A stretch of 63,934 nucleotides of DNA, counting the filler, from Collodictyon triciliatum (lineage: Eukaryota): assembly GCA_043381765.1 (NCBI GenBank). It is 4 parts of 4 records of this genome, joined end to end, with 100 filler letters (N's around TTAATTAATTAA, not from the genome) between each part and the next. Parts side by side here need not be neighbours in the genome. Positions count along the whole stretch, not along the records: positions 43,064 to 61,206 come from JBHJMP010001203.1; 3 more parts are not named here. One strand, written 5' to 3'. Of the stretch, positions 11,394 through 61,306 are shown piece by piece. Position numbers and translations under genes: made by a program. Position 1 is the stretch's first letter, and the number at the start of each line of letters is the position of its first letter. The notes below the pieces were generated by a model. That model was not told the DNA's origin and ran no database searches. It saw only the letters and a list, made by a program, of their open reading frames with translations.

Positions 11394-11938
11394 NNNNNNN
11401 NNNNNNNNNNNNNNNNNNNNNNNNNNNNNNNNNNNNNNNNNNNNNNNNNNNNNNNNNNNNNNNNNNNNNNNNNNNNNNNNNNNNNNNNNNNNNNNNNNNN
11501 NNNNNNNNNNNNNNNNNNNNNNNNNNNNNNNNNNNNNNNNNNNNNNNNNNNNNNNNNNNNNNNNNNNNNNNNNNNNNNNNNNNNNNNNNNNNNNNNNNNN
11601 NNNNNNNNNNNNNNNNNNNNNNNNNNNNNNNNNNNNNNNNNNNNNNNNNNNNNNNNNNNNNNNNNNNNNNNNNNNNNNNNNNNNNNNNNNNNNNNNNNNN
11701 NNNNNNNNNNNNNNNNNNNNNNNNNNNNNNNNNNNNNNNNNNNNNNNNNNNNNNNNNNNNNNNNNNNNNNNNNNNNNNNNNNNNNNNNNNNNNNNNNNNN
11801 NNNNNNNNNNNNNNNNNNNNNNNNNNNNNNNNNNNNNNNNNNNNNNNNNNNNNNNNNNNNNNNNNNNNNNNNNNNNNNNNNNNNNNNNNNNNNNNNNNNN
11901 NNNNNNNNNNNNNNNNNNNNNNNNNNNNNNNNNNNNNN
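11394..11938. other. Assembly gap (545 N)
   Basis: Run of N with no linker sequence. Confidence 1.
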
Positions 11939-21532: not shown

Positions 21533-21632
21533 NNNNNNNNNNNNNNNNNNNNNNNNNNNNNNNNNNNNNNNNNNNNTTAATTAATTAANNNNNNNNNNNN
21601 NNNNNNNNNNNNNNNNNNNNNNNNNNNNNNNN
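21533..21632. other. Artificial contig join (44 N + TTAATTAATTAA + 44 N)
   Basis: The same 100-bp structure occurs three times, and the 12-mer carries stops in all six frames. Confidence 0.97.
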
Positions 21633-42963: not shown

Positions 42964-43063
42964 NNNNNNNNNNNNNNNNNNNNNNNNNNNNNNNNNNNNN
43001 NNNNNNNTTAATTAATTAANNNNNNNNNNNNNNNNNNNNNNNNNNNNNNNNNNNNNNNNNNNN
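42964..43063. other. Artificial contig join (44 N + TTAATTAATTAA + 44 N)
   Basis: Same structure as the join at 21533. Confidence 0.97.
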
Positions 43064-43101
43064 TTCTTCTTCTTCTTCTTCTTCTTCTTCTTCTTCTTCT
43101 T

Positions 43102-43131
<30 letters not shown>
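43064..43131. repeat. (TTC)n microsatellite
   Basis: About 22 copies preceding the TCATAG acceptor. Confidence 0.97.
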
Positions 43132-43132
<1 letters not shown>

Positions 43133-43139
43133 TTCATAG

Positions 43140-46100
43140 CGATACGCTATCAGAACGAGAGGAATTTCGGTCCGTGGTTCTTCCTAGATTGAGGGATAGA
43201 TGTAGAGCACTTCGCTTGGACATTATTGAGTGTGATATCCGATATGGTGTGGCTGCGCTAAATGCTATGCACGGAATTCCTCCTAAAGGAGATGATGAAG
43301 TGTCCTCTACAATAGTAAAAACAAAACAAAATAAAATAAAATTTCTGCCATCCATAAATTCCTTTACCCTTTAATCCACCGCCACATTATGACAGTCAAT
43401 TGTCCTAAAGTATCAAAAAAATTATTATTTTTTTTTTTTAAAAAAAAGGTTCTGCACTTGTTTTGTAAAATAATTTTAGTCTACTAGGACCATGTCAATT
43501 ATATTATTCCTTCATGGCAATCATAGGGAAGCGCACAAGAACAGGCAACTTTTCTGCGAATATTAATGAAAGAGTTTGAATCGTGCATGAGTTCTACCGC
43601 TGGATTAAGTACCAAGATGCCACACAATATGTTTTTCGTATCGTTCATCGGCCAAAAATATGGATGGATACCTTCTGAGGTTCAAATATGAATCATACTA
43701 TCTATACTGTACTTTTTTTTTGAGTGAATGAACACTTTTTTTTTAATTATGGCCAGTGCTTAACGTTTCTACATAATAAATTAGGAAGTGCTGAATCGAA
43801 GTTATGCATCTGAGCTCTGGCATTGGAAATCAGGATTCTCTCTGATGGCCAGTAATTTTCACCTTGACTCGAATTTTTTTTTATTTGTGACAATCCAAAA
43901 AAAGAGAAAAAAAAGAGGAATCTTTTCTGTGTAAAGAATGTATAATATATAGAATATTAATTATACCATTCCTTCTTTGTTTATCTAAAGTGGAGCTCCT
44001 CAATGCTGTTTACATGAGACCAAACCCTAATGGCTTCATCTATATTCGTGGTGATGGTTTTATGAATCATGAGTCTACATTTGAAGGATTAAATTCTTAC
44101 GAAAAAAGAAGAAGAGAGACAGATTTAGCGTTGCAATTTGAGGATTCTAACGGAGTATATTTCCACATAATCTGAAAATGATTCGTTATCAACTTTCATA
44201 TTATCATGATGTTTGCACGTTCCTTTCAATCTTGATAATTTATAGTCAGATGCCTTTTTTTTTTTTTTTTTGGAACTGAAAATGTGCCGATGATTTAATA
44301 AAAATAATCATTATTGGTTGACGTTGTTAGGGGCGTGCAGACGATAGCTTATCGACTCCGAAAGTAGACATTACCAAAGAGTGGAAACATAATATTCTAA
44401 TTGAGAAATTAAAGAAAAGGTTCTCGCTTAGATTTAAGTTCAATCATTAAAATAAAACTGTATTATTGTATTCACTCTTTTTTTTTTTATTCACTTTCAT
44501 TATTAAATAGAAGAATTCCTTCAAAACATACAAACACTTTTCTTTTCAAAAAAAAAAACAACAGAATTCCGGAAAAGAACATTGTAGACGGTTACAAATG
44601 CATCTTCGGTGGAACTGAAGATGATGGAAATCCTCAAAGATTTGTGGGTCCTGTGAAGTATACCATTAAATTAACAGGTACAGCGCATATAATTATAAAT
44701 AGTTATAAAATATGAGTCAATCTATCTCCAGGGTACAACTTTATTCTTTCAATGTACTAGATGCTTTTTTTACAGGCTGGCTTAGTAACTATATACATAT
44801 ATATATTTGTACTCTATCGTTATTGCTTTTTTCATGAGTCAGGGTTTGATCAACTCTGCAGGCAGATCGAAAATCAACTTTTTGAAGCATTGAAAGAGTA
44901 CTTACACATATTATAAGGAAATTTTTTTCATGATTTTTATGTTTTTTATGTTTTTCGCAGCATACTTTTTCCTTAAAATCTTGAAATTTTCATCTAGATA
45001 CTTCCCCATCGATTTGAAAGCTGGTATTAATCGCAATTTGCAATTAAAAGCTGACTTGAATCATGGCATCAAAAAAATTCTTTATGCAAATATTCCAAGA
45101 GAATATATTACCAACAGAGTTGAAAATTACATGACCACCGGAACTTGTTACGAGGAGTCTGAAGTCGAAAATAGGTGACCTAATAATTTTTTTTTTGCAC
45201 TTACCAGCCAGACGCAATTTATTCATATAATTAAAGTATGCACATTTGTCCATGATATTTAATTTGCTTTGCCAGTGACTCTCCGGACGAGGGGTTCCAC
45301 CCTCTCTATATCATCGGGGATGTAGGTCAGTAATTCGCCTTTTTTTTTTTTTTTTGTCACAGAGCTAATTCACTGAATTTTACCTCAATATAAAGATAAA
45401 AAAAGAGAGGAAATGTCCATATGGGGTCGGTATATACCCTTTTGTAATAATTACGATGATAAACAGGGGCAGGAAAGTCACATATTGTCGCATCCAGCTA
45501 CCAAAAAATGCAAAAATCATCGAGTGTGAGAATTATTCTTTACTGAAAAAAAAACCGTTTTACATTATAAGCATAATTATAATTTAATCGTAATCGCAAT
45601 CACCAAAATTATCTCCATAATTATTACATGATTTTAAATTACGTATTTGCTTCGTTTCTACACAGCTTTTCATATTTAACGTAATCAAACCATTTGTAGC
45701 CACCTAACTTTATCGTGCATTTTTCCACTCTCCCTGTATTTGACAACCAACTAAGTTCTCTGTTAGAAAGGTATCATTCTTTATCTCGATATTTTTCATT
45801 TGATTTTTATTTTTATAATTTTTTCTTGATACATTCAGATTCATAAGCACTTCTTTGAGCATTTGTTCACTCACCGAGGAAGAACATCTTCAATTGGAAG
45901 GGAAATCAAAGACAACATATCATTTATCTCAAATTCTGCATTTTCTGATTGATAAAATTCCAGTTCATAAACCCACACTCTATATTGTCGATGGCGCTGA
46001 CCAACGTAATAACTTTCAATTCTTTTTCTTACTTTTTACATACATTCGTGGTTTTTTCATGTAAGCTTTTTATCCATTTTCTTACCTTACTACAGAGTAT

Positions 46101-49100
46101 TCCTGCTCAGAAGGAATGATATGGGTGATATTCTTAATTTACTCAAACAAAAAATTAATTTGGGAAACGAACATATGAAAATTAGTGTGGAACCAGACAG
46201 GAACTTTAGATCTTAGTTGGATACCAATCAAATGGAAAAACCCTGCTGTGCGATTTATCGTTACTTGCCAAACTTCGTCTCTCCTTAAACTTCATTTTCA
46301 TGAAATTGGATATGAACCATTAGTGGTCAATGTCCCTGGTTTAAATATGGATGAGAGGGTGAATTTTGTGAAAGCATATCTCACACGGATGAACTACTCA
46401 CTTTATCCATCAATAAAGGAAAAACCAACGGTAATATCGATTTATATTGCTATATTGGATAACCAAAGCCAACATCTTCACCATCCTGCACAAAATTGAA
46501 AGGAAGAATAAAAAAATTGCTATATTGGATAAAATTATGTTATCTAACATAATTCTATTACTTTTTCTGATGATTTATCATTTTCGGTGATTCCTCAAAA
46601 TTATTATTAGGCGGTCGTCATACCTGGCTTCTTGATACTCAGTGAAAAGATGATACTGCAATTAGCAGCTACAAAAAAAGCGGGCTCTCCCATATGGTTG
46701 CAAAGTGTAAATATTCATTGCTCCCATGATTAGATTATGTTTACAATATGATCATTCAATATTCCCACCATCCTCTGGTTGCGTTTTGTAAAAGAATAGA
46801 AAGAAAATTATTTTAACTCGCTATTTGTCACAGGCCATTGCTACACTTCATCTCCGCTGCATTCCAGGGACCAATAAATCTGAGCTTCAATCATATTATA
46901 ATGAGCTTCCATTTGACTTTGAGGAGCTTATATCCATATATATGAGTATTCTTGGTAGCAGGTAAATTTCTTATATTAATTTTCATCGGCGTTTATGACT
47001 TTAATTGTCTTATTCCTGAGGTAGTTTATAAATTCGAACCAAAAAACACAGGGTCAATAGCAAGTTACTCAAAAGTGTGGTTACTTCACTTTTATTCAGT
47101 AAATATGGGCTGCAAGAAAATGAGATCAGGTGAACAATATATATATATTGATGTATATATTGATGTTACGAAGTATTTTGTAAGTCAATACGATGGTGAA
47201 ATGATTCAATTATTTAAATTGTATGCTTTTCAATTTTTTTTATTATAATTCGGGATTTTAATAAATTTAATTTGCAACACCGCTGATATTCCCCTCATAC
47301 TGTTTGTTTACGTTGTAAAGAGGCTTAAATGGTTCTATCGACGGAAATCTTCCTGCGTATGATTGGGCATTACTATCAACTGTACTTTTTATATTATCGA
47401 TCTATACTTGTAAAAATATTTTAAGAAAGCTGGGTTGAGTAATGATTATGGTACTAAATATAATGCCTCTTGTTCATGCCGCAATTTTTTAAAACGCAAT
47501 ATTTTCTTTATTGATTAGCAGCCCTTCAAAATTAATCATTGCTTTTTTTTTTCATTTAACAGGATATGAATAGATTCCTATTGAATTGTTGCTCGATTGA
47601 AGGCTGCAACGGGTTTTACATATGCCATTCCAAAGTCAAAACAGCTATAGCAACGAAGTATCGAAAGTTTATTTGTGGCAATAAGCATTTAGTATTCGAC
47701 CTCAAGAATAACATTTCTTAACTATTTTTCTGTTTTTCTCTTTTCTTTTCTTTTTCTTTTTTCTTTTTCTTTTCTTTTTTCTTTTTTCTTTTTTCTTTTT
47801 CTTTTTCTTTTCTTTTTTCTTTTTTCTTTTTTCTTTTTTCATCCAACCAACTTAGATTTTATGGGGATTCGAAATATGTCATGACCTGCAGGCTAACAAA
47901 CCATACAGCCGAGGAAGATCTTTTTCATAAAATTACATCACAAAGTTCCCTACCCATAAAGGCTCACCGTTCTTTACGTGCGTATTACCAAGGAGCATTA
48001 ATGTCATGGAGGGATAAGGTTCCATTCCTGTTTCGTCAAATTATTATATATTGTGAAATTAACGCAAATAATCTGTTCCTTCAAGGCCTGTCGCATTGTA
48101 GTAATTGTGATGCCTCTTGTATCTTGCATCCTCATAACTCTCGTTCGTAGATGTCGACAGAGGAAGTTATTAGGCCGATTGAATTAGAAAAGTATCACAT
48201 GGCTTGCATTTTTTCTCCTCCCCAGATTGATATTGCTGTAAAAGTTAGACCGTTGACCCAAAGGTTTTATTTAATATTTAATCTAGAATAAAAGTCAAAT
48301 AAGGGAGTTTTCTTTTTAACTTGTGGTACTGGAACATTTATACCCATCTACCACCTGAATAACTAGGTTGATGGTTCAGAACGACTTTTAAATAATTATT
48401 CGATTATAGTCTTATTCAAGTTGTTCAAGTTTCTGTTTACGATACGTTTTAAAATATCCAAATTATACACTTTCACCAATTAAAATATATACGCATCATT
48501 AGAGAAGTTAACGAGCACACGAAATTATGCTTCTCAATGAGGCATTCCCAAGTATTTCTTTACAATTATGAGAAAGCCAATTTTCTTCAAACATTTTGTT
48601 TTGATTTTCATATAAGACATGATACATGGGAGGAAAGTCGGTCCAAGTGAGCAAATATATCGAAAAATAATATCATTTGAACCGTTAATGTAATTGAATA
48701 ATTGTATCATATTTGTTCCATGAAATCCCTGTGATGTCTCTTGATTATGATTATTTCTGAATCATTTGTTAGATTGCAGAAGGAATCATTCTACCAGATA
48801 TATGATGCGTTATGCGGTACTCTTTTAAATGACAAGAGCATCACACTTTTTTCAGTGGGATACGAGGTTTGTCCCTTTAAGAAAGCAAGAATGGAAATGA
48901 AACCTACTCTGGCATTAAGCATGCACCTATCAATTAACTTCATAGATTATCTTTCTCATATTCTAGCAAATGCAGAGAACTCAACATTAACAATTATATT
49001 CAAAGGAAACTGACAAAAATTTCACCATGTTTGGGGATCAAGTAGACGACGGATTTGCAGTTTTTGTATTTGATGAAATTATTAAAGATGTTCAGGTTAT

Positions 49101-52100
49101 TTTAAGGAAATGAACTATTATTATGAAAATATACATGGTTTTAAAATCATAAATAAGCTAGCCCTCCCATTCTTTTCAGACCTTTTCAAATAAGAACATT
49201 TTATTCACATGCTCAACTATTACTTTGCTATACTCCCTTCTTACTTTTCTGCTTTCATTCACGGATATTAGAGAAATGGAGACACGTTTATCGCATCAGC
49301 ATCATTCATCGAAATTTACGAGGAAGAAGTGCGTTTTTACTTACTTTTTTTTTTAATTTACCCTAATTGAAGAAGTCGGTTTTATACTAATCCACAATTT
49401 TAATATGTAAGTCGTTTACATTTTCTAATGAAAGATTCTTATTTATGTAATGCGGCAGATTACCGATCTATTTCACGATTTAAATCCTCAAAAAGCTAAC
49501 ACATCAAAGTAACTTACAGTCTTTATGCTTAATTGAATGTTACACTATCAAGCCATCCTCTAATATTTTAATATAGCTGATTAATATTCTATTGCGTGTC
49601 TAGAGTTCTCAAAATATATGATGCACGTCATGGGCAAGTCCAAACAATTTCTCAATTGACGGATGCATACTCGGTTAACGTTAAGGAAACATCATCGGTT
49701 CGAAGATTTATTCGGCAAGTCATTGGCAACCGCACCAGAGAGGTTGATTTATTAAATAACAGAGTGGGAAAAATAAACCTTTTTCTCAATCCCGCTACAT
49801 TTAATTATTTTTTTTCAAATATTAGATGTCAAGCTCTGGAATTTCTCCGAACAGATATGTGAATGCAACGATGATATTTCAATTCGAAATTAAACGAACA
49901 AGAATGCCGAAAGGAGGCAGTGCCAAACCAGTGCAGGTATAATAAAAGCATTAGATATGCTGATAAGAATTCAATATATATGATTTAATGACGCAAACTG
50001 TGGAGTCTCAATGTCAAGATAAAATTGCATAACTTATCTAGAATCCAAACTCTATCTTGGTGACATTTGTCGACCTTCCAAGCTTAATCTTTCTCCCTTT
50101 GAATATATCTCTAGAAAGGGTGGTAAGTATTCATCGAGCTTTCCTATAAATGCCCTTTTAATTTGTTTGTTTGTTTGTTTGTTTGTTTGTTTGTTTGTTT
50201 GTTTGTTTGTTTGTTTGTTTGTTTGTTTGTATGTTTGTTTGTTTGTATGTTTGTTTGTTTTTTGAATTATTAGAAAGAATTGAAGATCAAAACGTTTTTG
50301 ATACTGCGCTAACTTTTACATTACTGTGACACGTAATGCTAAAGAACTATACAGAGTTCAAATATGCCGTGAATAGATCTCTTTTATGTTTGATGAGATG
50401 TCTAAAGTCCTTATCTGTGGGTAAAAAGCCAAAGTAAGTAATCAACAAGCTTCCCTATATCAATCCAACATACGATACGTTATCGACTCTATTACAATTT
50501 GAAATTAAATATAAATTTTTACAAGAAATTGACTCAGATGATTCCATCGTTATCTAATAACTTAAATTAATTACTCGAGTAATGAGCCTGTGCGAGGAAA
50601 TTTGGTCGTTAATTATCACGTATGGCTCGTATTTCTCTTCATTTTTTCATTAAGGTCAAATAATGTTAATTTCGAATTTCTTTAACGTGTGTCATTTTTT
50701 TAAAATTTATACTAAATCACTCGTTTAAACGCTATCCTATCCATCTTGTAATCTGACTAAATATCTCGCGATACATTTTTAGGAAGCAAAACTCACCCAA
50801 TTGATTAAGGACTCCATCGATGGAACCATCAAATCTTTATATATTCTGCATCTGGGGCCCACAACAAAAGCGTCAGATGTATTTTTCTCATTGGAATTGA
50901 AGTTTTCTTTCTTTTTTTTAAAAAAAAAAATCGAATTTAGTTCTACTTTAAACGATATTCACCACCAATTTTTCTTTCTTCGCTGAAAATGCTTTCTGTG
51001 CGTTTTTCGTCGTCACTTTCTGAATCGAAGTGAATTCGTATGTCCTGTGCATCTACATAAGTTATCGTAGCATTCAAATGATTCCGTTTGTCTATAAAAT
51101 TCAGGATAATCACCACACTATGAGGGTAGGAAATCTCATTAAAAAGACAAAAAACTCTCTTATATTATCCGGAGCTGGTATACAAGACCAGGACATTGAT
51201 TGGGAGGATGAGTAATCTGTTTATTATTAGCATTATTAGTATTATTATTTGGTTCATTATTGTGAAATCCTTGTATTTGAGTCTTTTTTTTTAACTTCTG
51301 GTGAATTTCATTTATGTTCGCCTTTTTTTTAAAAAAAAAAAACCTTATTAACCTAATTTATTGCGGCTGAAGCGGCCATACAAACTTACATGCCTGTGCT
51401 TTACTAGCGTTGTCGGGGACTCGAGTGTCGAGTATGGTGTCCTGCAATCACTAAGATCTGGGGATGTAACGACATTGACTCTTCGTCCAGGAACTGTGCG
51501 CAAATTCTATTCTATACGTGCAATAGCTCATGATAGTTGCATATGAGATTGTAAATATGAAAAACTTCTTTCCTTTTGTTTAACATATTTGCCTACCTAC
51601 TTTCATTGAACATATTTAATTTAACGCTCGTTTCCATTTACAAAAAAAATACATAAAATAAAATAAAGATTACAAAGCAAAATGCCGAACTTCTTCGCAA
51701 AGTTCTATCACAAAATTCAACAGTGAACCTTCTTCGGCTACTCCCAAGTAGCGACCTTTCTGGCGCAGCGAATGAGATAGAATATCCAGTCGAGGTTCCC
51801 ACAAACTACCTCAATATGTCTTTATTTGTCCTCGCTCTTGTCATATCTTAGTTTAATTTCTGAATGCCCTCCTCAAATTTCATGCTTCATTTATCTTACA
51901 GGTCATTAAAGTACTGTCCGAATTTATTTCGACGTCGAAGATTTTTAGGAAACTCATCATTCAAGTCTTATATCATACCATGAATGCATATCAATTATCT
52001 TGCTATATCTATTAGTAAATCTACTTTATTCCCACTTTTGTATTATCAAAGAGTTTTTTTTATCAATATCTTCTTTTTCATACTGTCAAATTTACTTTTA

Positions 52101-55100
52101 ACCTCCCACTTTTGATTCTCTATTGACGCAAAGGTATCATTGGATGACTCCTGTATGGTCATTCTTACAGATGCCATGAAGTCTTCTCCATCCTTAAATC
52201 ACTTCCACTTGCAATGTCCAAATGTTGGAATCAAAGGCGCAACAGGGCTATCCGCTGTAATTATATATTTGATTTCCTTTTCGATTATTATTGTTGGTTT
52301 GCTGTGTGTTCATATATTCTATTTTATTTTATTTCGTTTTAGTTTTAGTTTTAGTTTTAGTTTTAGTTTTAGTTTTAGTTTTAGTTTTAGTTTTAGTTTT
52401 AGTTTTAGTTTTAGTTTTTTTGTTCTTTTTTGTTCTTTTTTGTTCTTTTTTTGTTCTTTTTTTGTTCTTTTTTTGTTCTTTTTTTGTTCTTTTTTTGTTC
52501 TTTTTTTGTTCTTTTTTGTTCTTTTTTTGTTCTTTTTTTGTTCTTTTTTTGTTCTTTTTTTGTTCTTTTTTTGTTCTTTTTTTGTTCTTTTTTTGCTCTT
52601 TTTTGTGTTGTTTTGCTTTGTTTCAAATAGAAGAGAAATAAAAGTAATTGCATAAACTTGGGAGCTGCTTTTTTTTTTAATCAGACTCATGTAATGTATC
52701 TACTTATTTTCTTTTTCTTTTTTGGAGATTTTAAGAGACGCTAAGGAACCATCACTCAACTCTCCTTCAAACAGGCACTTGGCCAAAATCCAACAATAAA
52801 AAAAGTCACAATCAGACAAGGATATGTAGGGCTCTGGCAGGTCCCTCTGGCTAGGTGGCTTACTTTCCACTCTCATATCGTCTACTTGGATCTTTGTCAC
52901 CAAGATTTGACAAATGGAGGGAAATCTCTGGATTGTATAAAGTTAGTATCTTAGTAAAATAACCAAACACGATATTTCATCTACATAGATTGAACACGAT
53001 TTATTTTGAACGAATACGCTGGGGTTGATGTTACCCCTATTTTCAGCCGTCAGTCGCTTCATTCTATGTATTCACTCCGCTCTAAACCATACAACAGGAA
53101 ACTTTCTGCCTTACTTGCTATACCCTCGTCCACCTCGAGCCTGTTTTTGAGAAATACCAACCTGGGGGTTGATGCTATATCTTTGCTGGTTGAAGGGGCC
53201 TTGAAGAACCCATTACTCGAGGAACTAGATCTTGGAGAAAACGATATAGAAAACGCCCTGCAGTACATTTTCAATCTCGTGATGTACCATCCAAAGCTAT
53301 CGATTTTACATCTCTCTGGGACCCCATTATCCTTTCAATCTGCCACGAAGCTTGGAGAGACATTATTAAAAGTATTATATGAAATATTTTTTCCGCCTTA
53401 CAGAAAATCATAAGATTATTGAATTCTAGTAAAGATATCTCTATTCCTTGATTCAAATTACCCGTTTTAATAATATATTGTTGAATAGAGTCAGGCAATC
53501 AAAGAAGTTAGACTCAGTGTTCGTTTCCCTGTCAGGGCCATAAAGTAATGTCCGACAACATCGTGAATAGACCAATATATGTTTCTTTTGTTAAATAAAT
53601 TCGGGGAATCCAGATATTTCAGGCTAATAAAATTTTTATTTGTGAACCCACAGGGAAAATACAATTACCTCAATCAACTGGTCCGAAGAAACCTTTACAG
53701 ATTCTGATGTTTGTTTATTAGCAACATTGCTTTATGGAAACAAGTCTGTTGAATGCGTTGAATTATGCAATACTGTAATCGGACAGGATGCCGGACTTCA
53801 ACTCGCAGATGTGGTCTATCAGCATCCTGGAATTAAAAAGGTATATGCAACTATTCTTCAGACGAAACAAATACAAAGCAATATTTGAACAAAAAAATAA
53901 CAATATATAATGATCCTCTCATAAAAGCTTGATTGTCTCATCATATTTATAAAACTTGTAGATTTCTATTAATCGTCAAACTGTTATCGACGTACACGGA
54001 ATCCGAAGCAATTCAATAAATCAAATAGACTTGAGGATTTCAGGCTCACAATGGGGCGATACCGATATTTTTATTGTGTGTCACCTTCTAAAGACAAACA
54101 CTTCTGTTCACCGTCTATTGACCCATCAGAGAAAATTATCTGTCACCGCAGCTTATCTTCTGCGCGACCTACTTTCAGAAAAGTATCCTAGCTCATCACA
54201 ATATTCATGCTATGATTCTAGTTCAATTTTTTTATTTATCATTATTATTTACTGTTGTTTCATTTCACTCGATGTAAATGAATCGTTATATTGTGATATC
54301 TATAGTGTACATATTGAGAACATCACGTACGGAGAAAGAGCATTGATTCCCATCACAAAATTTCTTCAAAATCGCCCGGCTGGGAAACAATATGTTAATT
54401 TCGTCGATGTCTGTGCCATTCTATCGCATTCATGTAGAATAAAATCAATTTGGTGAGTAATTCAAGCTGGTATTTATTATTTTTAAATAAATCAGGGATT
54501 CGGTAGCATCGATGCTATTGTATGGTCTGGGTTTTTGAAACAAAATCCGGCCGGGATAACTCTTCTTGACCTAAGCAACTCAGGTCTGAGGAATTTAGCT
54601 ATTAAGCTAATTTCTGTTTCTTTTTCTTTTTAAGTGTTCTTTTCTTTTAGTCTTTTAAACCCTCTATTAAGCGTAGTGCAGGAAAATAATTCAAAAGAAA
54701 TCTATCACTCTCATAAAAGTTCATATTTGAATCCAAATCGACTGCGCGTGTTGCTTACTTTTTTTAAAAAAAAAACATGGTAGGAATTTCAATCCGTGAC
54801 ACTGGGGCGTTATCGATTGTGGAGGCTCTCATGATAAATAAACAGATCAGAACTTTGGATCTGTCATGTAACCAATACTTAGTCCTTTCTAAAAAGAAAA
54901 AAAAAAGAAAATAGCCTGGGTTACTTACGTGCCATCAGATTCTAAATATATTTCTTTTATACTTTATTCTTTGTTGAATTTAGGCAATACTACACCTTCT
55001 TCGAACTTAATAAATCTCATCTATGTTAACAAACGTAGGTAATGGTCTGACCGACAAAAGTGGTGTGGCAATAGCACTTGTGCTTTTGTCCAATATGTTC

Positions 55101-57072
55101 GTGACTGACTTAAATCTATCATGTACGAGTTGGTCTATGCTGCGATTACATTTTCCAATAATACAATGTGTTCTTTCCATAACCCAAGGAATTTAATAAT
55201 CCCATCTTTTCTCTTTTCAGTCAATTGCTTGGGTGAGTTGACTGCCGAGGCACTAGCTTCAAGCCTTAAGTCTAATAGCACATTGAAGATTCTCGACTTA
55301 TCTTGTAAAATCTAATTGCTAACTTTATGAACAAATATATTAAATAATGTATACTTCAATTATTATTTTAAAAAAAAACATATGTTGTTAGTCATATAGA
55401 AAACCATGCTCATTGTCAGTGATTCTAATTTTTGTCTAAAAATAAAAAAAAATAATACGACAAAGTCAATTTTATGGATGACACCTGTATGGCTCATCTT
55501 GGAAATGCTATCGGTGGCCATAAAGCCATTGAGCTACTTGATATGCGAGGTTCTTAATATTTGTGGAGTATAAGAAACATGAAAAATTAAAGAAATAAAA
55601 AAATGTCAAAGCTATTTTGTACGAATCCGGTTCGAGTAGTAGCAATACATAAAATAATAGTCAATCGTGTATTTTTCCATTATAAACCTGAATTTGTCCA
55701 TCACTTAATGACAAAAAATATAACAAAATCAGGCAACCATATTGGCGAAAAAGGAGCTATTTTCATAGCATCTATGTTGAAACAAAATCAGACACTACAG
55801 TCTCTCTCGCTTGCTGGTGCGTTCAAAAGATGAATTGCAACCTTGCCTTTCCCTTGATCGATTGCTATCATATCAAATCAATAATTTTTTATTTAGACAA
55901 CTCTATTTCCTTCGTTTGGGAATATGATTTTAATCATCTTCGTTTGAATCCATTTGATATGAACGTATGTACCCTGCTAAGCCGAGTTACTATTTTAAGG
56001 GAACTCCATCAAAGAGAAAGGAATTGCATCCTTTGTAGATGTTTTCAGGTCAAATCATAAAATAAAGTCGCTGGATCTATCATGTATGATTTTCTTTTTT
56101 TCTCATTCTTATTTCTCCAGTGGCCTTTTTTGCAACAGATAAGAATTAGTGCGACAGAAGACACAATAGGGTTAGCAGATAATAATTGATATTTTGGTTA
56201 ACTATCTCATATAGACAACAAGCTTGGTGATAAAGGATTTACTATGCTGATGGAATCAATTCGCTATAATCATGGAATAGAAGTCTTAGACCTTGAATGT
56301 ATTCATAACATTAATATTACCGTTTCCATTATTGTAACCTCTTTTTTTTTTTTTTAGAATGTGTTGTGACATCTTTAACCATAGGAACCTCTACATTATT
56401 CTTCTTATCTCTATTATTATTGTTTTTTTTATTCTTCCTTTCAATTTTGTGCAGGATAGGATATGTTGGCTTTGGTTCGCTAGCCATAGTCTATTATTTG
56501 GATGAAACGCTTTCATATCTTTATATTTTCACAGGCAATAACATAACCGACAAAGCTAGTCCGTTTTTGTTTACGATGATTCAAGAAAATCGCACTCTTC
56601 GCGCGCTGAACATATCATGTGAGATATCTGCTTTCCTCAATAATGAATCACAGTTTTAACTCTTTCTTTATGGCCTTTTGAAATTTATATCACGGAAGTC
56701 AACACGCACAAAAGGGTTTAAAATTTTCATTAAACAGAGGATTTAAATATTTTTCAAATATCTCAGGGAACAAATTTACTCCGAGAACCTTTCTTTTATT
56801 TCAGACTGCCCTATCAAAAGGTGGACTCGCTTGCTTATCCACCCTTTTATTGGAAGGTTCGTTTGTTTTTAGTTTTGTCCTTTAAATCTTTGTGCTATCC
56901 CTCCTTTTTTTCCTTTTTTTTCATAAAGTTCGTGATAAAATATCTACCCCATCCATCACTTATCATTTATTTGGTAATTTATTTATTGATTAATCAACTT
57001 GGAAGAAAAAAAAAAGAAAAAAGTTGATGACATGAAGGTGACCAACTCGGGATGATAACACCACTGCATTGA
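43140..57072 (+). CDS. 5'-truncated DUF4062-like + NACHT-type P-loop NTPase + RI-like LRR protein (NLR-like), many exons
   Basis: N-terminal DTLSEREEFRSVVLPRLRDRC..ECDIRYGV and FFVSFIGQKYGWIP resemble TEP1/NPHP3/NWD proteins. Walker A IIGDVG|AGKS is split by an intron near 45326-45465, and Walker B is TLYIVDGADQ, followed by LSWIP..VRFIVT. The C-terminus has 28-aa LRRs such as GNHIGEKGAIFIASMLKQNQTLQSLSLA. Putative stop is TGA 57070-57072. Exons between about 47000 and 51600 are less certain. Confidence 0.78.
46463..46515 (+). mobile_element. Short poly(A)-tailed retroposon insertion, copy 1 (intronic)
   Basis: CCAAAGCCAACATCTTCACCATCCTGCACAAAATTGAAAGGAAGAAT(A)n flanked by the 17-bp direct repeat ATTGCTATATTGGATAA (46446-46462 and 46516-46532). 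Confidence 0.9.
47738..47840. repeat. (CTTTTT)n intronic pyrimidine tract
   Basis: Directly visible. Confidence 0.9.
50162..50260. repeat. (TTTG)n microsatellite, intronic
   Basis: About 24 copies, two of them TATG variants. Confidence 0.95.
52337..52605. repeat. (TTTTAG)n followed by (GTTCTTTTTTT)n, intronic
   Basis: Directly visible compound array. Confidence 0.95.
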
Positions 57073-57252
57073 AATAGGTATCTCTGGGGTCTCTGAGCAC
57101 GAATTGTCTGAGTTGTACCATAAGCTGAAACACCTTGCGCACAAAAAATAAGTATGGTTGAATGTACAACTTCTTAACTGCCTATTAGTCTTTCTTTTCT
57201 TTTTCTTTTCTCTTTAATGATGAATGACTAAACTTCTATCTTAAATAAAATT

Positions 57253-57307
57253 AGCCAACATCTTCACCATCCTGCACAAAATTGAAAGGAAGAATAAAAA
57301 AAAAAAA
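57253..57307 (+). mobile_element. Short poly(A)-tailed retroposon insertion, copy 2 (intergenic or 3' UTR)
   Basis: AGCCAACATCTTCACCATCCTGCACAAAATTGAAAGGAAGAAT(A)n, identical core to copy 1, flanked by the 15-bp direct repeat ATCTTAAATAAAATT (57238-57252 and 57308-57322). Confidence 0.9.
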
Positions 57308-57602
57308 ATCTTAAATAAAATTTCTTGAAGAGTAAATCTAGTCTAACAATTTATTGAATCTATCAGAGCTACTCATTTTTCTACATCCTTAAAATGGTAC
57401 TACTCAAAACCTCATAAATATTAGGTGGTCAAAATTGATGAATCTGGCCCTTCTGGGGAAAAAAATAAATACAATAAAGATGCAGTAACTTTAAGAAAAA
57501 GTCTAATTATCAGAATGATTAATGATAGAAAGGAAGCGAAAAAAAATTAAGAAGGTATTTTGGAGGAAGAAATGCAGCCAAAAATGCAACAGATTCTCTC
57601 CT

Positions 57603-60600
57603 CTAATGGTCCGAGTCGGAAAAAAATAGTTTCAGGTCCTCGATTTTGAATTGGTGGCTGTCCGAATCACGCACACTCAATGCATTTTTCGCGATAGCTG
57701 CTTTGTTTTGCTGTAGATGCAAGATTTTCTCCTCGATGCTTTTCTAACAAAGTTTTCATTTTGATTCATGCCACAATCCCGCCAAGAATACGAGTTTTAG
57801 CACGAAAAGAATATAAAGAAAATTATTATTTTTTTACATGCGCTGAAGAAGAGTAAGAAATCCACACACCTCGATGATGAATCGCGTTACTACTACTGGT
57901 CGAGTTTGGTTGACGCGATGTACTCTATCAATTGCTTGTTCCTCTGTAGCAGCTGGTTATATTTACCAATTTTGAGTGTGAGGTACTAGTGACTTGAACT
58001 ACGTTATATATATTATGATTGAAAATTAAAAAAAAAAAAAAACACTGGAGCAAACAGCCTCGTTATACAATACTAAGAATATCTGACTCACCTCCATAAA
58101 TTTATCGAATCGAGAACAAGTAAGAAACCCAACGAATGAGGTATGAAAAAAAAAAAGGAGAACGACGAAATGAAATGAGACTTACGATTCCACCACGGGT
58201 CCATCAAGAAAACACGTGAAGCTTCTGCAAGATTGAGTCCGACTCCTCCGGCTTTCAACGAAATCAGCATCACCCTAGGACAAAAGTCAGCTACCTCAAC
58301 TCTCAACATGAATGAATTTTATGTGCTTGCGAGAATGATTTGGAGGCACCTCACAGATGGATCTGCCTTGAAATGTTTAATTGCTTGGTCTCTTTGGTGA
58401 GAAGACATTCTGCCGTCCAGTCTTTGAAACTTTATCAAACTTTTCGTCATCACATTTCCTATTAAATCCAGCTTGAAGGAAATACGGATTAGGGGAAATA
58501 CTTGGTTATCACTGTTGTCTTTTGAAGTTTCTTTGTGTACTTGGTGGTGTCGAACCTCAGGAAGCTATTAGAACTGAGAGACAGATACAAATACTACTCG
58601 AAATGAATACTGTTAACTAGGTTTAAAATTTATACCATTCCAGTCCATTGCGAAAACACAATAGATTTTGTGGTGGGATCAATTTTCCATGTATCATAAA
58701 GCTCTTTCATTAAAGCTTGGGTTTTTGTGCTTGATTCGCATATGTGATCCATCTGTAGTCAATAAGTGCGTTCACATTACCAATAAGTAAATAAAAAAGA
58801 AAAAAAGGATGTACTTGCGTAGCATTTGAAGCATTTGAATGCAAACAAACAAAAATCATGCTATTTCTCGTGCCATATAATTTTGTGTCATTTTATGTAG
58901 ACAGAAATATAAACAGACCCGTGTCTCCATTTGTTGGCTAGCCTTGACTGGTGTAATCGCTGTACGATCGAATGGATAGAGCACGATTCAGTAGGTATTT
59001 CATTTAAATTATACTTCAATTTGTTGATTCGTTGAGTCCAACTCGAAAATTTTTGGATGAGAATAAAATGCAATACTTGAAAATAATCATGTATCTAATG
59101 AGTGATGTATATTTATGATTGATTACATGACCATGGAAGTTTGCAAATAAGGCAGATTTCTAGTGTTTTGCCGATCCAAAAAAGAATTAAAAAGTGTAAT
59201 GCCATAAATTAAAACTTAAAAAATGCAAATAGCAAATTTATTTCTACTATGGATCAGTAACATGAAGTTTGATATGTGATGTTCGGACAGGTGAGAACCT
59301 TGGTCACACAATTCGATGCATTCTAGACAAAAAGTATGCTTGCATGAGGGCATGTACCCACACTCGACTGTGTCTATGCATAAAGCACACCTGATGTTAT
59401 CTACAAGTAACTCGTCCGCTTCGAGATTCTCGAATGATGACGACACTGCCTAATGGGTTGCATATCTGATCATTCACTTCTTGTTTAACTTGAGCATTTA
59501 TTATAAAAAAAATAACAAATGGTTAACTTTGGATAGGTTTCGAATTGTATATTTCCTTTTTGCTCTCTTGGTTCTATGCAATAAAAGTTCATTATCTTAT
59601 AAATATGAAAAGCTATGAAACCTGAAAAGAATCTGAAGTGGGTAATATCGGAGTTCTTGCATGCATTTGTGTCGGTTTATCGCGGTCAAGGAGGCCAGAA
59701 ACAGGGAGGTTTCGACAGAGATTGGGATGGTCGCATGCTTGTCTTAAACGTAGAAGTAAATCCAAGATAAGGTTGTAGTTTTTGTAGACAGAATTTGACT
59801 GCATAATTAGAAGAAAAAGGCGGATATTAATTTATTTGAATTGGAAGCACAAATAAAATTACATTTGTTCTAGTAAAATGATTTTTTCAATTTTCATTAC
59901 AAAGTAAATTTGAAAATATACAAAAAGCAAGATTTTTTGAGCATATAGTTGAGAGAAACAAATATGAGGAAATATAAGTCGTTGGCTGTTACCTCAACCA
60001 TGGATTTGAATCTAAGTTTGGACTCCTTCCATAATGAATCATAAACCTTCTTCTCAAACTCTTGGAATTGAAGCTTTCTTATGTGAACCTGACAAAAAAA
60101 ATAATAAGGATATGACATCGTTACCTTTTTTTTTTTCAGTTGCTGGTGGAAAAATCTCCAAAAAGAAAAAAAAGAGTTATGTTTTAACTAGAGGTAATAT
60201 ACAATGAGCGGTAAACTTTGCTTACAACTTTAGGTGCCATCTTTATGATTTCTGTATCTTCAACTTTTTGATCTTTAGTTCTTCTCAGGAGAATAGGCTG
60301 CAGTAGCAACTAGTTCATTAAACAAATGTAAAAATTTATTCAGGTGAAGAGATACTTCTTTCAACTAAAATCCATATGCAGGCTATTCTTGGTCTGTAAA
60401 GATTAATAGAATTGATATACTTGCAAAGCTCGAAAGTTAATCGTTCCAGCAGAGCGAAGTGGTTTTACAATATATTGGATCCAGTATTCGTGACGTCCTG
60501 TGGTTTATTTCAGAGTAATAGCAGGTAAATTACAAAATTTTAGATCATATCTTTTCGATAGTTTTTTCCCCATATTACATCTATCTGTAAAATCTACTCA

Positions 60601-61206: not shown

Positions 61207-61306
61207 NNNNNNNNNNNNNNNNNNNNNNNNNNNNNNNNNNNNNNNNNNNNTTAATTAATTAANNNNNNNNNNNNNNNNNNNNNNNNNNNNNNNNNNNNNN
61301 NNNNNN
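61207..61306. other. Artificial contig join (44 N + TTAATTAATTAA + 44 N)
   Basis: Same structure as the other two joins. Confidence 0.97.

Follow-up and report, generated by a model that had tools for sequence, protein, structure and literature searches.

Gene structure

The plus strand of a 63,934-nucleotide (nt) window of the Collodictyon triciliatum genome (assembly GCA_043381765.1; the part concerned comes from record JBHJMP010001203.1) very probably carries, from 43140 to 56885, a single gene whose product would combine a DUF4062-like N-terminal domain, a NACHT/NPHP3_N P-loop NTPase, a helical region, a kinesin motor-like domain and an array of ribonuclease-inhibitor (RI)-type leucine-rich repeats (LRRs). 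The window is the whole stretch of DNA that was analysed, and positions count along it; its character is that of AT-rich eukaryotic DNA with short exons, and many short, coding-looking stop-to-stop frames lie on the plus strand between 43.1 and 57 kb. According to the gene model, the segment splices to 52 exons (median 92 nt) and 51 introns (median 148 nt), all of the GT-AG type, giving a single open frame, 1895 codons long, that ends in a stop codon (56883-56885) and has no internal stop. The first exon base, 43140, follows an AG acceptor, and the gene is 5′-partial. An earlier note on this DNA had described coding segments on one strand with compatible splice phases, and the exon chain bears this out; the same note had placed the 3′ end at 57072, which is now moved to the stop codon at 56883-56885, and had left a gap between about 47000 and 51600, which proves to be coding and holds the helical region and the kinesin motor-like domain (48241-51143).

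The model was built with a splice-aware dynamic-programming finder trained on RNA-supported exons, followed by manual curation of the upstream part and by curation of the middle and the LRR region against a homologue, P0001. A HMMER search of 1.84 billion representatives with the 81-amino-acid (aa) NACHT exon found two proteins only, P0001 (2209 aa, E = 1.5e-25) and P0002 (2042 aa, E = 7.4e-12). Each is an open reading frame flagged as complete on one Trinity transcript of Diphylleia rotans (EukProt), a collodictyonid of the CRuMs clade, where the two represent two genes with six isoforms in all. The window product aligns with P0001 end to end, collinearly and with few gaps, at 51.7% identity (979/1892), and with P0002 at 38.6% (704/1823), also with few gaps; P0001 and P0002 are themselves 37.8% identical. 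By tblastn, P0001 residues 300-2193 also fall in order along 43138-56858. As judged from sequence, this collinearity combined with the open frame is far beyond chance, and we infer that the window gene is an orthologue-like relative of P0001.

RNA support comes from the contigs of two runs of one study, X1 and X2, which are not on record as RNA and whose contigs proved spliced. Of the words sampled from a 10-kb stretch, 14-17% occur in X1 and X2, and their contigs were mapped to 43064-58499; joint counts refer to the joints displayed, and there are 32 further joints beyond these. At least 99% alike to the locus are 29 of 67 records in X1 and 33 of 68 in X2, with an RNA depth of about 1-11. At least 11 GT..AG joints lie on the plus strand between 46005 and 49826, and 13 of the 51 introns have RNA support, 11 of them seen as such contig joints and two implied by contig coordinates (47657|47856 and 52941|53098). 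In particular, a 1639-nt X2 contig runs from 45888 over ten exons to at least 48646, with an open frame from the exon of the Walker B motif to exon 48503-48646; it connects the exon of Walker B with the first exons of the kinesin domain, and other joints reach 49826 (the last being 49742|49826). The earlier note had named a transcript break between about 47000 and 51600 as the sign of two separate genes; that sign is not seen, the RNA displayed there being this spliced contig and the joints that follow it. Moreover, X1 pieces set the exon edges at 51669-51792(4), 52775-52941, 53098-53371 and 53960-54182.

A third run, X3, gave short repeat-like pieces only. In one X2 contig, 49824 is connected to 51323 by 18 additional letters; 51323-51351 is matched by many 31-letter X3 contigs, and an X1 contig has a loose end at 51321. 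At this intron position, the 49824/51323 junction may come from a short repeat or from chimerism of the contig.

Domain composition

The DUF4062-like N-terminal domain is encoded by two plus-strand exons, 43140-43299 and 43527-43679, collinear with P0001 300-408, and the module ends in FIGQKYGW (43644-43667). The DUF4062 profile (PF13271, cut-off 24.7 bits) scores 13.2 bits on P0001 (E = 0.11, profile positions 30-74) and has no match on P0002 or on the window exons; in contrast, P0007, a 3784-aa DUF4062-NACHT-WD40 protein, passes the Pfam DUF4062 cut-off at residues 1314-1397 with 35 bits. P0001 288-822 aligns with P0007 1310-1758 (E = 4.6e-23), including Walker A, Walker B and the post-Walker-B strands, and residues 1-514 of the window model also align with P0007 (E = 3.7e-12). 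By these alignments, the N-terminal domain is DUF4062-like by homology via P0007 and is not a member by curated threshold, so that the DUF4062 domain proposed in the earlier note stands as a homology and not as a Pfam assignment. Compared with P0007 in pairwise alignment, the DUF4062 part of the Diphylleia/window family is longer, while remaining below the Pfam cut-off.

A conserved linker of six exons follows on the same strand (43785-43851, 43991-44154, 44331-44419, 44565-44677, 44843-44897 and 44998-45174), placed by a manual splice model and collinear with P0001 and P0007; a piece of an X2 contig covers 45033-45172 within it. The NACHT/NPHP3_N P-loop NTPase core (45283-46379, plus strand) was mapped from the P0001 Pfam matches to NPHP3_N (634-777) and NACHT (643-814), and is RNA-covered from 45888 on. 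Both nucleotide-binding motifs that had been read as intact are there. The Walker A motif GDVGAGKS (45316-45480) is present, but only after splicing, when exons 45276-45325 and 45467-45525 are joined across intron 45326-45466; its counterparts are GESGIGKT in P0001 and GDSGIGKT in P0002. The Walker B motif YIVDGAD (45981-46001), preceded by L to give LYIVDGAD, lies inside an RNA-supported exon. P0001 exceeds the cut-offs of both NACHT (PF05729; 28.4 against 26.7 bits) and NPHP3_N (PF24883; 33.6 against 24.8 bits), the latter being its best NTPase model, and P0002 stays below them (19.1 and 17.9 bits, respectively).

The helical post-NACHT region comprises six exons within 46611-48018 on the plus strand. 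Its six flanking joints are all either seen in the spliced X2 contig or given by the coordinates of that contig, the region is collinear with P0001, and Pfam on the homologues gives no family for it. Residues 822-850 of P0002, from this region, also have a weak tblastn match (E = 0.09) at 2725-2811 on the plus strand, far from the locus, which is probably due to chance.

The kinesin motor-like domain, about 351 aa long, is encoded by 13 plus-strand exons (48241-51143), with RNA joints up to 49742|49826. The Pfam Kinesin profile (PF00225) matches P0001 at 1069-1417 (E = 3.8e-34) and P0002 at 972-1325 (E = 8.7e-42) over profile positions 1-325 of 327; these scores belong to the homologues, with whose kinesin domains residues 761-1111 of the window model align without large gaps. 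The closest solved structures are KIF19, KIF14 and KIF1A, with E values of about 1e-20. Catalytic motifs were read from P0002 against KIF19 (5gsz_A) and carried to P0001 and the window product through the family alignment. The P-loop, GPTGCGKT in KIF19, is canonical in P0002 (GPLGTGKT), formally intact in P0001 (GYDDSGKT) and lost in the window product (GYEETDKN, 48858-49020). Switch I, SSRSH in KIF19, is lost in all three proteins (ISNAN in P0002, RFANS in P0001 and RYVNA in the window, within NRYVNAT at 49850-49870), as is switch II, DLAGSE in KIF19 (DLACSN, DMPALI and DLPSLI, respectively; VDLPSL at 50069-50086 in the window). The retained segments are RxRP, EIYxE, alpha4 and SKLT (YxxSKLT). 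Judged by these motifs, the kinesin-like domain is catalytically dead.

The RI-type LRR region spans about 740-760 aa and 20 plus-strand exons from about 51408 to the stop codon at 56883-56885, in line with the RI-class LRRs of the earlier note; the four X1 pieces between 51669 and 54182 fall within it. LRR_6 (PF13516) matches P0001 and P0002 with E values of 1.6e-21 and 1.1e-21, and one open reading frame of the window (52994-53410, holding exon 53098-53371) matches it with E = 0.0039 and 17.6 bits, under the 23.4-bit cut-off. There are 16 LRR-motif matches between residues 1154 and 1880, and the repeats are 28 aa long. The gene's last eight internal exons, consecutive between 54784 and 56618 on the plus strand, are each 84 nt long, in phase 1, flanked by AG..GT, and encode one 28-aa repeat apiece, collinear with P0001 1941-2163; the pattern resembles what repeat growth through exon duplication would leave behind. 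This arrangement, one repeat to an 84-nt exon, is reminiscent of how exons are organised in certain vertebrate NLR genes. Among solved structures, axonemal RI-like LRR proteins match the LRR part best, and NOD2 (5irl, E about 1e-15) and ribonuclease inhibitor come next.

The profile comparison that the earlier note had proposed comes out divided when scored on the homologues: LRR_6 and, on P0001, NACHT/NPHP3_N lie above the cut-off, and DUF4062 and the P0002 NTPase lie below it. Its DUF4062-NACHT-LRR architecture does not hold as it was given: these elements occur in this order, but a dead kinesin domain of about 350 aa sits between the NTPase and the LRRs.

Homologues and domain partners

P0002 has the same domain layout as P0001, and Pfam finds NPHP3_N/NACHT, a full-length Kinesin domain, Microtub_bd and LRR_6 on these homologues. 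Both proteins also have a precomputed match to PF27087. When the N-terminal and NTPase module was searched, 13 proteins were found at E ≤ 1e-3. Apart from the two kinesin-LRR proteins of D. rotans, these carry WD40 (8), TPR (2) or ankyrin plus TPR (1); most of these 11 have DUF4062 annotated, and none has a kinesin domain or LRRs. The pairing with LRRs looks independently assembled, as the earlier note had also held, because the nearest relatives of the module end in WD40, TPR or ankyrin repeats and LRRs occur only in the two D. rotans proteins. P0007-P0018 represent the TEP1/NWD1/NPHP3-type proteins here.

Other searches extended the family no further. Searched by words against longer proteins, the NACHT exon had no match, and a word-based search with P0001 560-1450 returned only P0001 itself and one weak WD40 protein. 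The ESM Atlas, queried with P0002 540-1330, gave scores of at most 0.85, all to NPHP3_N/NACHT/AAA-type clusters and none with kinesin, which are leads and not evidence. Neither the family alignment nor the NACHT exon retrieved a relative from JGI metagenome contigs, and PADLOC and NCBIfam gave P-loop-level or sub-threshold matches only.

Three known groups share parts of this architecture. With the DUF4062-NACHT-repeat STAND proteins, the window gene has the N-terminal domain, linker and NTPase in common as one homologous block; however, those proteins end in WD40, TPR or ankyrin repeats rather than in kinesin and LRRs. With the animal NLRs (NOD1/2, NLRC), it shares a NACHT domain followed by C-terminal RI-type LRRs, but its NTPase is nearest to the DUF4062-NACHT-WD40/TPR group, a kinesin fold of about 350 aa stands between NACHT and LRRs, and the homologues P0001 and P0002 are without CARD, PYD, BIR, TIR or death-fold domains (Pfam, E ≤ 0.1). 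The organism is a protist, and the assembly was therefore most likely independent of the animal NLRs. With the kinesins (KIF19/kinesin-8, KIF14, KIF1A), the family shares the full-length motor fold and the RxRP, EIYxE, alpha4 and SKLT segments; unlike them, its domain is internal, has no recognised neck or coiled coil, has lost switches I and II, and is too divergent for placement in a kinesin family. Nucleotide-free kinesin-like domains exist elsewhere.

Full-text literature yielded no description of a NACHT-kinesin fusion, and supplementary architecture tables, which lie outside that coverage, may list such proteins. In a survey of Fabaceae NLRs, a 'Kinesin motor domain' stands among many InterPro domains in some NLR proteins (PMC11734081). 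The likeness is that of a foreign domain inside an NLR; those proteins have NB-ARC and not NACHT, and the domain is listed there without position or conservation, whereas the kinesin domain described here is conserved in two paralogues and an orthologue.

Flanking sequence

Directly upstream of the first exon lie a (TTC)n run and two N runs (42964-43007 and 43020-43063). Such pairs, of exactly 44 N each with 12 bases between, occur at 21533-21632, 42964-43063 and 61207-61306; the pair at 42964-43063 is flanked by pyrimidine-rich microsatellites and sits where the gene's 5′ exons would be expected. One further N run, of 545 N, extends from 11394 to 11938. No tandem paralogue was seen in the window by tblastn with P0001, and Rfam had no match at gathering score in the whole window.

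A dispersed repeat of about 50 nt, without an Rfam match, has three copies that are 93-100% identical to one another, two of them intronic in the gene (46467-46516, plus strand; 56424-56477, minus strand) and one downstream (57253-57302, plus strand). Its RNA contig depth, tens to more than 100, far exceeds the depth on the flanking exons, loose ends occur at either side, and many copies seem to be transcribed elsewhere. Further downstream, a minus-strand neighbour (57321-58564) faces the 3′ end of the LRR gene with its own 3′ end. Its CT..AC introns (57744-57869, 57953-58185 and 58274-58348) are RNA-supported, two of its exons have sub-threshold Pfam Helicase_C matches, and this convergent neighbour is a helicase-type gene.

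Interpretation

With somewhat better than an even chance, the locus is one gene for a STAND protein of about 2,000-2,200 aa, with DUF4062-like, NACHT/NPHP3_N, helical, dead kinesin and RI-type LRR parts, that would act as a microtubule-tethered, nucleotide-gated switch; taken by itself, the tethered-switch function is at best an even call. By analogy with other STAND proteins, the NACHT domain would serve as nucleotide-gated switch and oligomerisation core, and the LRR array as the partner- or ligand-binding, autoinhibitory part, in place of the WD40, TPR or ankyrin repeats of the relatives. The kinesin-like domain would be immobile and would anchor the switch on microtubules, such as those of the flagellar apparatus, a tether that is proposed because the alpha4/L12 region is the better kept part of this domain. 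The kinesin-like domain and the axonemal LRR matches appear to point at least as much to a cytoskeletal as to an immune role.

Several observations weigh against this reading. No single RNA contig covers the whole gene, X1 having depth only from 48729 and X2 mainly over 44094-50788, which leaves room for two overlapping transcription units, and 38 of the 51 introns are placed by homology and splice consensus alone. These include the flanks of a predicted 40-nt micro-exon (50580-50619, plus strand), the weakest point of the model, which keeps the frame between exons 50345-50433 and 50783-50878; among seven frame-compatible AG..GT candidates, it is the one whose product resembles the P0001/P0002 segment, and no RNA joint to it is among those displayed. 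Neither tblastn nor a motif scan of 36-43.1 kb located exons that match P0001 1-299, a part that includes the first DUF4062 strand, which both homologues possess. Pfam on 20 single open-reading-frame pieces of the window gave weak LRR_6 matches only, the other domain calls coming via the homologues; single-exon matches are nearly absent because the exons are too short for profiles. Moreover, the axonemal matches of the LRR part may stem from nothing more than the generic RI-type repeat, as NOD2 and ribonuclease inhibitor match too. Finally, the predicted 176-nt intron 49096-49271 (plus strand) is kept in RNA contigs of both runs, with the X1 pieces 49004-49188 and 49162-49328 continuous. Its removal is needed for the frame, given an in-frame TGA at 49111-49113, and restores exact collinearity with P0001; its presence in the contigs would mean either that data of low depth have caught a retained intron or that there is a truncating isoform, which would end after the first third of the kinesin domain, and the retention could be regulated. 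Reassignment of this TGA codon was considered and ruled out, with no stops in the 413 upstream RNA-supported codons and several different stops downstream.

The strongest alternative, though a rather unlikely one, is an NLR-like sensor of innate immunity or non-self, in which the LRRs would sense a microbial or viral cue, the NACHT domain would oligomerise, the N-terminal domain would signal, and the dead kinesin would be a decoy for kinesin-attacking effectors, or a tether. Animal NLRs likewise have RI-type LRRs behind a NACHT domain, NOD2 is among the LRR matches, D. rotans has at least two diverged paralogues, and the one-repeat-per-exon structure would allow expansion by exon duplication. 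The remaining domains fit less well, however: the NTPase is nearest to DUF4062-NACHT-WD40/TPR proteins and not of NLRC/NLRP type, Pfam found no CARD, PYD, TIR or death-fold domains on the homologues, and the PADLOC matches are at P-loop level only. Nor does the copy number resemble that of immune NLRs, with only two paralogue clusters found, no tandem paralogue in the window, and no sign of the large variable repertoire that is usual for them. A broader version, in which the gene would represent an undescribed NLR-like receptor class assembled independently in CRuMs, its dead kinesin a cytoskeletal anchor or integrated decoy, and thus a cytoskeleton-integrated innate immune sensor outside animals and plants, is distinctly unlikely.

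It is also quite improbable that the locus makes two products, an NTPase protein stopping at 49111-49113 with the intron kept and a separate kinesin-C/LRR transcript from near 48743. The retention of intron 49096-49271 in contigs of two runs would fit such a division. In addition, the first X1 contig starts at 48743, inside the predicted intron 48647-48772, with no X1 depth upstream, and in D. rotans an isoform of 1063 aa, P0005, has its start at the kinesin P-loop; because of these two starts, an internal transcript start giving a kinesin-C/LRR product is possible. Yet coverage gaps are expected at this RNA depth, with 32 joints not displayed, and Trinity fragmentation accounts for P0005 equally well. 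The X2 contig runs through 48503-48646 in frame with the NTPase, and the division would split the kinesin domain, both halves of which are conserved and collinear with complete single transcripts of D. rotans. That the locus is a decaying pseudogene, or the exon chain an artefact of model building, is highly improbable. In favour of it, the kinesin P-loop is lost in the window copy alone, one junction requires the 40-nt micro-exon, the 5′ end is missing, and a dynamic-programming finder always returns some exon chain, but the model has 1895 codons without a stop or frameshift and canonical sites at all 51 introns, is 51.7% identical over its full length to an expressed protein (P0001), is matched by spliced RNA contigs at 99% or more in both runs, and had its 84-nt LRR exons recovered already by the first, homology-blind model.

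Animals, plants, fungi and bacteria have STAND/NLR proteins as their main intracellular sensors of the switch type, and the number of independent origins of their NTPase-plus-LRR layout is still debated. The locus adds a case of this layout from CRuMs, a deep and little-studied eukaryotic lineage, and in it a kinesin fold devoid of its catalytic motifs is inserted. If the single STAND protein proposed here does bind microtubules through its kinesin-like domain, a nucleotide-gated, oligomerising switch would be tied directly to the cytoskeleton, and the gene would exemplify, in nature, how a motor domain can be turned into a static module.

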